Sequence record: NC_054925.1
From: Escherichia phage vB_EcoM_NBG2
Direction: 5' to 3' (one strand)
DNA: 64,000 nucleotides
Within the stretch, counting starts at the first letter, position 1; every line of letters starts with the position of its first letter. The notes below the pieces were generated by a model, which was not told the DNA's origin, searched no databases, and worked only from the letters and a program-made list of their open reading frames with translations. Positions 2,386 to 3,215 of this stretch are shown one piece after another. Both the position numbers and the translations under genes were made by a program.

Positions 2386-2461
2386 TCTGGTCGAGGCAGT
2401 AGGGATCGAACCTACGACCCAGGACTTAGAAGGTCCTTGCTCTTCCTTCTGAGCTATGCCT
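2386..2461 (-). tRNA. tRNA-Arg (anticodon UCU), CCA encoded
   Basis: Manual fold: acceptor CGAGGCA/TGCCTCG, D-stem GCTC/GAGC, anticodon stem AGGAC/GTCCT with loop CTTCTAA, T-arm GTAGG-TTCGATC-CCTAC. Confidence 0.8.
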
Positions 2462-2467
2462 CGTATT

Positions 2468-2542
2468 TGGCGGACGTGATAGGATTCGAACCTATAACCA
2501 ATCGCTTAACAGGCGATCGCTCTGCCATTGAGCTACACATCC
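2468..2542 (-). tRNA. tRNA-Asn (anticodon GUU), CCA encoded
   Basis: Manual fold: acceptor GGATGTG/CACGTCC, D-stem GCTC/GAGC, anticodon stem ATCGC/GCGAT with loop CTGTTAA, T-arm ATAGG-TTCGAAT-CCTAT. Confidence 0.75.
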
Positions 2543-2546
2543 AAAT

Positions 2547-2633
2547 TGGTGGGGAGTGGTGGAGTCGAACCACCCGAGTCGCAATGACAATGAATTTACA
2601 GTCCACACCGCTACCCCTACGGGATAACTCCCC
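2547..2633 (-). tRNA. tRNA-Tyr (anticodon GUA), long variable arm, CCA encoded; D-arm atypical
   Basis: Acceptor GGGGAGT/ACTCCCC, anticodon loop CTGTAAA, variable-arm hairpin GTC-ATTGC-GAC, T-arm GGTGG-TTCGACT-CCACC; D-stem pairing weak. Confidence 0.55.
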
Positions 2634-2642
2634 AAATTAATT

Positions 2643-2717
2643 TGGTGGCCCTGGGTGGAATTGAACCACCATCTGGCGATTATGAGTCGCGTGCTTGAAC
2701 CTTCCAGCTACAGGGCC
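2643..2717 (-). tRNA. tRNA with CAU anticodon (Ile via lysidine, or Met), CCA encoded
   Basis: Acceptor GGCCCTG/CAGGGCC, anticodon loop CTCATAA, T-arm GGTGG-TTCAATT-CCACC. Confidence 0.7.
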
Positions 2718-2719
2718 TT

Positions 2720-2794
2720 GGTGCTGATTGACGGAATCGAACCGCCGACCTTCTCATTACAAGTGAGTTGCTCTACCTACTGAGCTAAATCAGC
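2720..2794 (-). tRNA. tRNA-Thr (anticodon UGU), CCA encoded
   Basis: Acceptor GCTGATT/AATCAGC, D-stem GCTC/GAGC, anticodon loop CTTGTAA, T-arm GGCGG-TTCGATT-CCGTC. Confidence 0.8.
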
Positions 2795-2799
2795 AAAAC

Positions 2800-2889
2800 T
2801 GGCGGAGGCGATAGGATTTGAACCTATGAGTCGCCGGAGCGACTGCCGGTTTTCAAGACCGGTGCATTAAACCACTCTGCCACGCCTCC
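2800..2889 (-). tRNA. tRNA-Ser (anticodon UGA), class II long variable arm, CCA encoded
   Basis: Acceptor GGAGGCG/CGCCTCC, anticodon stem CCGGT/ACCGG with loop CTTGAAA, T-arm ATAGG-TTCAAAT-CCTAT. Confidence 0.85.
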
Positions 2890-2891
2890 AG

Positions 2892-2965
2892 TCTCCATAC
2901 AAGGATTTGAACCTTGGACCTCCTGATCCCAAATCAGGCGCTCTACCAAACTGAGCTACACGGAG
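2892..2965 (-). tRNA. tRNA-Pro (anticodon UGG), no encoded CCA; 2 nt from tRNA-Ser (dimeric precursor arrangement)
   Basis: Acceptor CTCCGTG/TATGGAG with two G-U pairs, D-stem GCTC/GAGC, anticodon stem CCTGA/TCAGG with loop TTTGGGA, T-arm CAAGG-TTCAAAT-CCTTG. Confidence 0.8.
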
Positions 2966-2975
2966 TAAATTAAAT

Positions 2976-3049
2976 TGGAGCGGATAATGAGAATCGAACT
3001 CACATCATCAGATTGGAAGTCTGAGGTAATGCCATTATACGATATCCGC
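2976..3049 (-). tRNA. tRNA-Gly (anticodon UCC), CCA encoded
   Basis: Acceptor GCGGATA/TATCCGC, anticodon stem TCAGA/TCTGA with loop CTTCCAA, T-arm TGAG-TTCGATT-CTCA. Confidence 0.85.
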
Positions 3050-3054
3050 AAATT

Positions 3055-3141
3055 TGGTGCGAGAAGTGGGACTCGAACCCACAAGGAAATCATTCCGCAG
3101 CATTTTAAGTGCTGTGCCTTTACCAATTTGACCATTCTCGC
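3055..3141 (-). tRNA. tRNA-Leu (anticodon UAA), class II long variable arm, CCA encoded
   Basis: Acceptor GCGAGAA/TTCTCGC, anticodon stem CAGCA/TGCTG with loop CTTAAAA, T-arm GTGGG-TTCGAGT-CCCAC. Confidence 0.85.
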
Positions 3142-3142
3142 G

Positions 3143-3215
3143 CTGGGAATAAAGGACTCGAACCTTTGCATCCTGGAATCAAAATCCAGTGCCTTACCAA
3201 CTTGGCTAATTCCCA
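3143..3215 (-). tRNA. tRNA-Gln (anticodon UUG), no encoded CCA; 1 nt from tRNA-Leu
   Basis: Acceptor TGGGAAT/ATTCCCA, anticodon stem CTGGA/TCCAG with loop TTTTGAT, T-arm AAAGG-TTCGAGT-CCTTT. Confidence 0.8.

Follow-up and report, generated by a model that had tools for sequence, protein, structure and literature searches.

The window analysed here, a stretch of 64,000 nucleotides from Escherichia phage vB_EcoM_NBG2 (NC_054925.1), carries a cluster of ten transfer RNA (tRNA) genes, among them one for tRNA-Tyr and one for tRNA-Asn. We conclude that this cluster is very likely an uninterrupted ten-gene Tequatrovirus tRNA operon that serves both codon supply and counter-defence. Judged by its sequence, the window belongs to Tequatrovirus (T4-like phage) and the cluster to the T2/RB type of tRNA operon. 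When a 1701-base region around the cluster was used as the query of a nucleotide comparison, it matched 1004 phage records, mostly Tequatrovirus phages of Escherichia, Shigella and Yersinia, and 484 of these covered at least 80% of the query; the 40 records listed for the region are 97.5-98.9% identical to it over its full length, and most of them annotate the tRNAs. The synteny is likewise that of Tequatrovirus, with the cluster lying between e.6-e.8 and trna.2-trna.4/internal protein/57B at positions that parallel those in T4 and in phage GiZh. Among the PHROG families matched by the flanking open reading frames (ORFs) are those of an internal virion protein and of a 57B-type protein (labelled 'RNA ligase'); a Pfam search gave no match for the neighbouring ORFs.

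The cluster as such is already known, being annotated in hundreds of genomes and largely studied: its relation to T4 and to the segB gene was settled in 2008, and the defence role of the Tyr gene was published in 2024-2026. Its weight for genome annotation is small, as it is a textbook T4-like feature that is correctly annotated in hundreds of records, and only one element may be under-described, namely the D-arm of the phage-type tRNA-Tyr, which is conserved and non-canonical.

Ten tRNA genes on the minus strand

ARAGORN, run over the whole window, found exactly ten tRNA genes, all on the minus strand at 2388-3215, and no other in the 64 kb. In the order of transcription they are Gln(UUG), Leu(UAA), Gly(UCC), Pro(UGG), Ser(UGA), Thr(UGU), a tRNA with the anticodon CAU, Tyr(GUA), Asn(GUU) and Arg(UCU), which are the same ten genes in the same order as in a preliminary description made from the sequence. 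The general tRNA covariance model of Rfam (RF00005; gathering score 29 bits) was used as an independent test, and nine of the ten tRNAs reached 59-74 bits with E-values of 1e-10 to 1e-14, far beyond chance, the exception being Tyr. Both Tyr and Asn, for which the preliminary description had proposed a check by a tRNA predictor, were called by ARAGORN, with the anticodons GUA and GUU; these genes are real, and they are very probably functional.

The CCA end is encoded in eight of the ten genes. Gln and Pro lack it and almost touch the gene that follows, as the preliminary description had observed, with 1 nt between the discriminator of Gln and Leu and 2 nt between the discriminator of Pro and Ser. 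The Gln-Leu and Pro-Ser junctions are as in the classical dimeric precursors of T4, with a CCA-less upstream member. A further gap of 1 nt separates the CAU tRNA from tRNA-Thr.

The CAU tRNA is labelled Met(cat) by ARAGORN and annotated as Ile in GiZh and in RB51. Its acceptor stem (GGCCCUG/CAGGGCC) has the pairs G1-C72, C4-G69 and C5-G68, of which the last two are determinants for the lysidine synthetase TilS. Among the E. coli chromosome matches listed, which were sampled across the ranking, eight of eight are annotated as tRNA-Ile; the full-length ones are 76-80% identical to the phage gene, and the best of them 79-80%. From these features the CAU tRNA is most likely a tRNA-Ile2, with lysidine in the anticodon and AUA as its codon. 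Identification as an initiator or elongator tRNA-Met was rejected on account of the G-C pair at 1-72 and of the tRNA-Ile annotation of the E. coli matches.

The tRNA-Tyr gene has a shifted D-arm

tRNA-Tyr shows the GUA anticodon, A73, variable arm, 7-bp acceptor stem and 5-bp T-stem of a canonical bacterial class II tRNA-Tyr, and 86 of its 87 nucleotides are identical to those of the tRNA-Tyr of phage T6, the single difference lying in the D-loop. Its D-arm had been called atypical in the preliminary description, and this is real: in the canonical register, which ARAGORN adopts, the D-stem TCCC/GCGG contains a C:C mismatch, and the phage gene departs from the canonical D-stem pairing of positions 10-12 with 23-25, whereas E. 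coli tyrU has the canonical form. We aligned the gene across ten phage lineages and counted the pairs formed under two candidate cloverleaves. In the canonical register the D-stem was 67.5% paired, with one C:C pair in all ten lineages, whereas a D-stem with the 5' strand shifted by two bases (CCGU/GCGG) formed four of four pairs in every lineage and included one compensatory change, from C-G to U-A, in a T5-like phage. Over the shifted structure as a whole 99.6% of the cells were paired and 13 pairs had changed on both sides, values that none of 500 shuffles reached. The acceptor stem of tRNA-Tyr is consequently joined to a 4-bp D-stem with a 7-nt D-loop by a link of 4 nt (UAUC) in place of the canonical 2 nt (positions 8-9). 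Across the family this link is 5 nt long in two lineages and the loop measures 7-8 nt, with A14, G18-G19 and A21 kept.

At the gathering score of RF00005 (29 bits) tRNA-Tyr was not reported, and its best match in the tRNA clan was the tRNA-Sec model at 31.8 bits, under the threshold of 47 for that model, in an alignment whose acceptor and D-arm contain mismatches and have low posterior probabilities. Single-sequence folding was uninformative, giving no cloverleaf (z-score -1.9). The poor score under the covariance model, as well as the labels 'tRNA-OTHER' and 'Pseudo' that GenBank gives to some homologues, are explained by the shifted D-arm architecture. A tRNA-Sec or an allo-tRNA (8/4 or 9/3) was considered and rejected, as the gene has a 7-bp acceptor stem and a 5-bp T-stem with nothing between them.

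The preliminary description had further suggested that Tyr could be a diverged or inactive copy. The score below the Rfam threshold, the C:C mismatch in the canonical fold of ARAGORN and the GenBank labels of some homologues would fit a decaying gene, as would the relative instability that T6 tRNA-Tyr appeared to have in fragment sequencing (PMC13096335). We nevertheless regard decay as extremely improbable. The pairing across ten lineages and the 13 pairs changed on both sides are evidence against it, the gene possesses A73, a GUA anticodon, a variable arm and a CCA end, and members of the family turn up in 1295 phage records that span many genera. Moreover, the T6 tRNA-Tyr was seen by northern blot and rescues infection (PMC13096335), and rescue by its T5-family counterpart needs the Tyr anticodon and intact stems (PMC11555353). 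The suggestion of an inactive copy is unsupported in view of the near-identity to the expressed T6 gene and the compensatory changes, and a pseudogene was rejected on covariation, on this near-identity and on the published function.

The 1295 phage records were obtained by a sensitive search, and eight representative ones belong to Vequintavirus, Karamvirus, Jiaodavirus, Felixounavirus, Suspvirus, Seunavirus and the T5-like genera Tequintavirus and Epseptimavirus; a 100% identical Tyr gene is present in only one database record. Homologues also occur on 272 E. coli plasmid records of about 90-115 kb, and the one examined was P1-like, with tRNAs beside a Dam-family methyltransferase gene. A blastn search (E<=1) of 5426 E. 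coli genomes gave no match of Tyr to chromosomal tyrT/U/V, and a global alignment with tyrU gave 58 identities over 90 columns. An origin of Tyr as a copy of the host gene was rejected on these grounds, namely matches on plasmids only and 58/90 identities to tyrU.

It is possible, although we hold it doubtful, that these genes represent a distinct and horizontally mobile 'phage-type' tRNA-Tyr architecture that has perhaps never been described as a structural class. Such a class would be defined by a 4-5-nt link, a two-base-shifted D-stem (CYGU/GCRG) and a 7-8-nt D-loop, and would range over T-even, T5-like, rV5-like and Felix O1-like phages, P1-like phage-plasmids and tRNA arrays of unrelated bacterial phyla. 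The shifted D-arm is not discussed in either of two papers on these phage tRNAs (PMC13096335; PMC11555353). If the proposal is true, the phage-type shape might be of consequence for the escape from, or the titration of, nucleases directed at tRNA-Tyr.

When bacterial genomes, including metagenome-assembled ones, were scanned for the pattern, 55 more tRNA-Tyr genes with the shifted architecture came to light; many of them form part of arrays that hold 10-25 tRNA genes, in Lachnospiraceae, Bacteroidales and other metagenome-assembled genomes. As for the neighbours of Tyr elsewhere, the order is Asn-Tyr-Thr in the P1-like plasmid, Asn-Tyr in Felixounavirus, Tyr-Asn in phage WPEC4, Tyr-Lys-Asn in Jiaodavirus and Tyr-Ile-Lys-Glu-Asn in Karamvirus. 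The Asn genes of these unrelated lineages are not close homologues of the Asn gene of the window. A frequent position of Asn beside Tyr would fit a small counter-defence module.

A probable role in counter-defence

The nuclease PtuAB of the Septu system cleaves tRNA-Tyr, and T6 tRNA-Tyr counteracts Septu: overexpression of the northern-detected tRNA rescues T6 under Septu, escape mutants amplify its gene, and T4, which does not have tRNA-Tyr, cannot escape (PMC13096335). Likewise, the T5-family tRNA-Tyr rescues phage from retron-Eco7, but only with an intact anticodon and stems (PMC11555353). The variable arm, which is the region of Septu cleavage, is identical between the Tyr of the window and that of T6. 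Both Septu and retron-Eco7 act on tRNA-Tyr through PtuAB, which cuts it. In the mechanism that we propose, the phage copies would replace host tRNAs destroyed by defence nucleases during infection. Counter-defence is the published role of the near-identical T6 tRNA-Tyr; for the Asn of the window, and also for Thr, a corresponding role is suggested by analogy.

Asn and Thr would bear on a different system, PARIS, whose nuclease cuts between positions 40 and 41, beside the motif U36AAU39 (PMC12409363). Substitution of U39 in tRNA-Lys abolishes PARIS cleavage, and the Lys, Thr and Asn variants of T5 together neutralise PARIS (PMC12409363). In the Asn gene of the window the corresponding positions read U36AAG39-C40-G41, with G39 and G41, as compared with the host Asn motif, which was taken from PMC12409363 since the E. 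coli tRNA-Asn retrieved for comparison is not the housekeeping asn gene. In Thr, positions 36-41 are UAAUGA (G40, A41) compared to UAAUCA in E. coli thrU. These changes in Asn and Thr are compatible with resistance to PARIS.

Several considerations weigh against the roles assigned here to the operon. As it has no tRNA-Lys, the cluster would probably leave the phage open to a block by PARIS, from which it is unlikely to escape fully; this weakens an anti-PARIS interpretation of Asn. T6 tRNA-Tyr is itself cut by Septu and protects only through dosage (PMC13096335), so that one Tyr copy may bring little benefit. For the tRNAs of vB_EcoM_NBG2, their expression and processing as well as their charging and modification are inferred from its relatives. 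Finally, a promoter scan found sigma-70-like matches at the level of chance (six compared to 5.8 expected), and none was assigned.

A phage with this cluster carries a tRNA-Tyr of the kind that mitigates Septu in T6, but without segB. The presence of Tyr together with the absence of segB could matter in choosing therapy phages against strains with tRNA-cleaving defences.

A probable role in codon supply

Codon usage was compared between 56 long window ORFs, with 18,364 codons, and 64 annotated coding sequences of E. coli K-12 (15,169 codons). The ratios have to be read with the limit that the E. coli sample spans only 50 kb, takes in the gsp cluster as well as operons for ribosomal proteins and does not represent the whole genome. 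For each of the eight codons most enriched in the phage over E. coli, one of the ten tRNAs is the reader; these codons are AGA (6.1-fold), GGA (5.1-fold), AUA (4.4-fold), UCA (3.3-fold), ACA (3.0-fold), AAU (2.9-fold), UAU (2.8-fold) and UUA (2.7-fold); CCA (2.2-fold) and CAA (1.5-fold) are the next in rank. At the level of amino acids, Tyr (1.72-fold) and Asn (1.54-fold) are the two most enriched in the phage. The tRNAs would hence top up the host pool for codons that the AT-rich phage uses far more than E. coli, that is, the A-ending codons (by seven U34 tRNAs), AUA (by the CAU/lysidine tRNA) and the codons for Tyr and Asn. The preliminary description had taken the set to be tuned to the codon usage of AT-rich late genes. 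Tuning is supported quantitatively; it is not specific to late genes, the enrichment being found on both strands, and it is not the whole story.

The strong match between the tRNA set and the most enriched codons, with Tyr and Asn as the top amino acids, could also mean that the cluster serves codon compensation only and that no tRNA in it has a role in evading defence. We consider this unlikely. Overexpression of a T6 tRNA-Tyr that differs in one base from that of the window rescues infection under Septu, and deletion of the tRNA region of T6 raises its sensitivity to Septu (PMC13096335). The Tyr and Asn tRNAs of the host already have GUA and GUU, so the phage copies bring no new decoding capacity, and codons for Lys, Asp and Phe are enriched too, yet the phage has no tRNAs for them.

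Homing endonuclease traffic as a possible influence

The CAU-Tyr-Asn-Arg block is identical to that of phage T2 at 327 of 331 positions. tRNA-Asn, which is identical to the T2 gene over all 75 nucleotides, is at least 95% identical in about 350 phage records and at least 99% identical in 315. The preferred 27-bp site at which the homing endonuclease SegB cuts was mapped inside the tRNA-Asn of T2L, with the consensus GGTTCRANTCC...CCAR, in a study that also sequenced the tRNA regions of T2L, RB1 and RB3 and showed that segB homing displaces the Met-Tyr-Asn-Arg block (PMC2330249). The uninterrupted ten-gene arrangement has been known from publications since that study. The window probably contains this site as well, because its Asn gene is that of T2 and contains the elements GGTTCGAATCC...CCAA. 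The relatives that bear segB, such as T4 and T6, would through such events have lost Asn, or both Tyr and Asn.

It could be argued from the same data that Tyr and Asn are mainly passengers of homing-endonuclease traffic, kept or lost by SegB homing and gene conversion rather than for a benefit to the phage. The preferred site of SegB lies inside the Asn gene, homing replaces the block around it and the tRNA region is reported to be non-essential (PMC2330249); in addition, the cluster is a mosaic among T4, T2, T6 and RB51. Against this stand the retention of the Tyr family, with compensatory changes, in lineages unrelated to the T-even phages, the Asn allele that is at least 99% identical in 315 records, the fit of the tRNA set to codon demand and the experimental benefit of tRNA-Tyr under Septu (PMC13096335). 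With this evidence we find it quite improbable that the two genes are mainly passengers, and prefer an operon that is kept for codon supply and counter-defence.

Organisation of the tRNA unit

The features of the unit are given in Table 1. Homology to T4 resumes at the CCA of Arg and runs on through homologues of the small stable RNA genes rnaD and rnaC of T4. The region of these two homologues (2122-2386) is highly conserved with T4, T6 and GiZh, and the rnaC homologue has a tRNA-like T-arm (CCGGGTTCGAATCCCGG). Neither rnaC nor rnaD matched a family in a search of Rfam. Where the window has the hairpin, GiZh has an annotated terminator.

Table 1. Features of the tRNA unit of the window in the order of transcription.
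Feature	Position	Strand	Rfam score (bits)	Encoded CCA	Basis and remarks
tRNA-Gln (UUG)	3142..3215	-	67.4	no	ARAGORN; 1 nt to Leu
tRNA-Leu (UAA), class II	3055..3141	-	59.3	yes	ARAGORN; identical to T4 and T6 (87/87)
tRNA-Gly (UCC)	2976..3049	-	63.3	yes	ARAGORN; 73/74 compared to T4
tRNA-Pro (UGG)	2891..2965	-	66.8	no	ARAGORN; identical to T4 Pro
tRNA-Ser (UGA), class II	2800..2889	-	62.6	yes (2800-2802)	ARAGORN
tRNA-Thr (UGU)	2719..2794	-	72.9	yes	ARAGORN; 73/76 compared to T4
CAU tRNA, most likely Ile2 type	2643..2717	-	59.2	yes (2643-2645)	ARAGORN, as Met(cat)
tRNA-Tyr (GUA), class II	2547..2633	-	under thresholds	yes	ARAGORN; discriminator A73; short variable arm
tRNA-Asn (GUU)	2468..2542	-	74.1	yes	ARAGORN; best score of the ten; G73
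Probable SegB preferred cleavage site	2466..2492	-			T-arm and 3' end of Asn (GGTTCGAATCC...CCAA); motif located, boundaries inferred
tRNA-Arg (UCU), T2-type allele	2388..2463	-	65.8	yes	ARAGORN; 51/76 compared to T4 and T6 Arg
Homologue of T4 rnaD (species 2 small stable RNA)	2267..2386	-			Alignment with annotated T4 rnaD
Homologue of T4 rnaC (species 1 small stable RNA)	2122..2260	-			Alignment with T4 and GiZh rnaC
Intrinsic terminator-like hairpin and T run, end of the unit	2048..2071	-			10-bp stem with 7 G-C pairs; TTTTT tail

From the biochemistry of T4, the ten tRNAs and the rnaD and rnaC homologues, which lie head to tail on the minus strand, would be transcribed as polycistronic precursors, and host RNase P, nucleases that trim the 3' ends and the enzyme that adds CCA would cut and complete these through dimeric intermediates. 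In T4, the dimeric Pro-Ser precursor needs the BN nuclease, nucleotidyltransferase and RNase P (reviewed in PMC11143913).

Between the terminator of the unit and e.8 lies a 157-aa ORF of unknown function (1522-1995, minus strand) that matches phrog_2280 and has no Pfam match. The interval it occupies measures only about 285 nt in T4, and GiZh annotates no gene there. A sequence like a T4 late promoter, TATAAATA, is found at 2034-2041 on the minus strand, directly after the terminator and about 40 nt upstream of the ATG of this ORF.

Comparison with the tRNA clusters of other phages

The annotation of Enterobacteria phage GiZh (KT184311) lists these ten tRNAs with an identical order and strand; rnaC and a terminator come after them, and e.8 and trna.2 are the flanking genes. 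Another Tequatrovirus genome with an annotated ten-tRNA cluster is that of Escherichia phage 121/2022-2B (OR958571). Compared to the annotated ten-tRNA clusters of Tequatrovirus, the window shows point differences only, for example a G instead of an A in the D-loop of Tyr.

The tRNA-Tyr of T5-like phages is of the same sequence family, with about 82% identity, an identical variable arm (UGUCAUUGCGACUCG) and the same shifted D-stem. It differs in its compensatory changes in the acceptor and anticodon stems and in its setting, as the tRNA-rich region of T5 has a strong promoter of its own.

T4 has eight tRNAs in the order that the preliminary description gave, without Tyr and Asn, as its sequence record confirmed. 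Its Leu, Pro and Ser (87/87) are identical to those of the window up to the discriminator, while Gly differs by 1 nt and Thr by 3 nt; the anticodon stem of Thr is among the parts that differ. T4 also shares with the window the sequences of the Gln-Leu and Pro-Ser junctions, the CCA-less Gln and Pro and the downstream rnaD and rnaC. In contrast, the CAU tRNA (47/75 compared to the tRNA-Ile of T4) and Arg (51/76) are different alleles in the window, and T4 does not encode CCA on Ser (UAA) and Ile (UAU), whereas the window encodes it on both. The phage of the window should hence need CCA addition for Gln and Pro only, that is, for fewer tRNAs than T4. At the place where the window has Tyr and Asn, between Ile and Arg, T4 carries the gene for the GIY-YIG homing endonuclease SegB. 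For tRNA-Gln there are two alleles among the T-even phages, UUUUGAU in the window and RB51 and CUUUGAC in T4 and T6, which are distinguished by compensatory exchanges within the anticodon stem and by the loop positions 32 and 38.

T2 and T2L (EMBL AJ880101; PV958097) share with the window the order Gln-Leu-Gly-Pro-Ser, and segB is absent from both T2 and the window. However, the place that Thr holds in the window, between Ser and the CAU tRNA, is taken by an ORF in T2, which therefore has nine tRNAs compared to ten. In RB51 a truncated segB-like gene takes the place of Pro. T6 has segB between Tyr and Arg, in the place of Asn, and lacks both Asn and Ser. In its annotated tRNA-Thr the body of Thr follows directly on the 5' end of tRNA-Pro (TCCGTGTAGCTCAGT...) in a fusion for which ARAGORN makes no call, and which resembles the outcome of a deletion from Pro to Thr by which Ser was removed. 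In T6, segB drives the amplification of tRNA-Tyr that allows escape from Septu; the window, which has no segB, should not amplify Tyr in this way.

To call the set of the window expanded, as the preliminary description did, is misleading. Ten genes are common in Tequatrovirus, and it is T4, T2, T6 and RB51 that carry interrupted or shortened versions. T4 is therefore not the reference state of the cluster, Tyr and Asn having been lost there to the insertion of a homing endonuclease gene.

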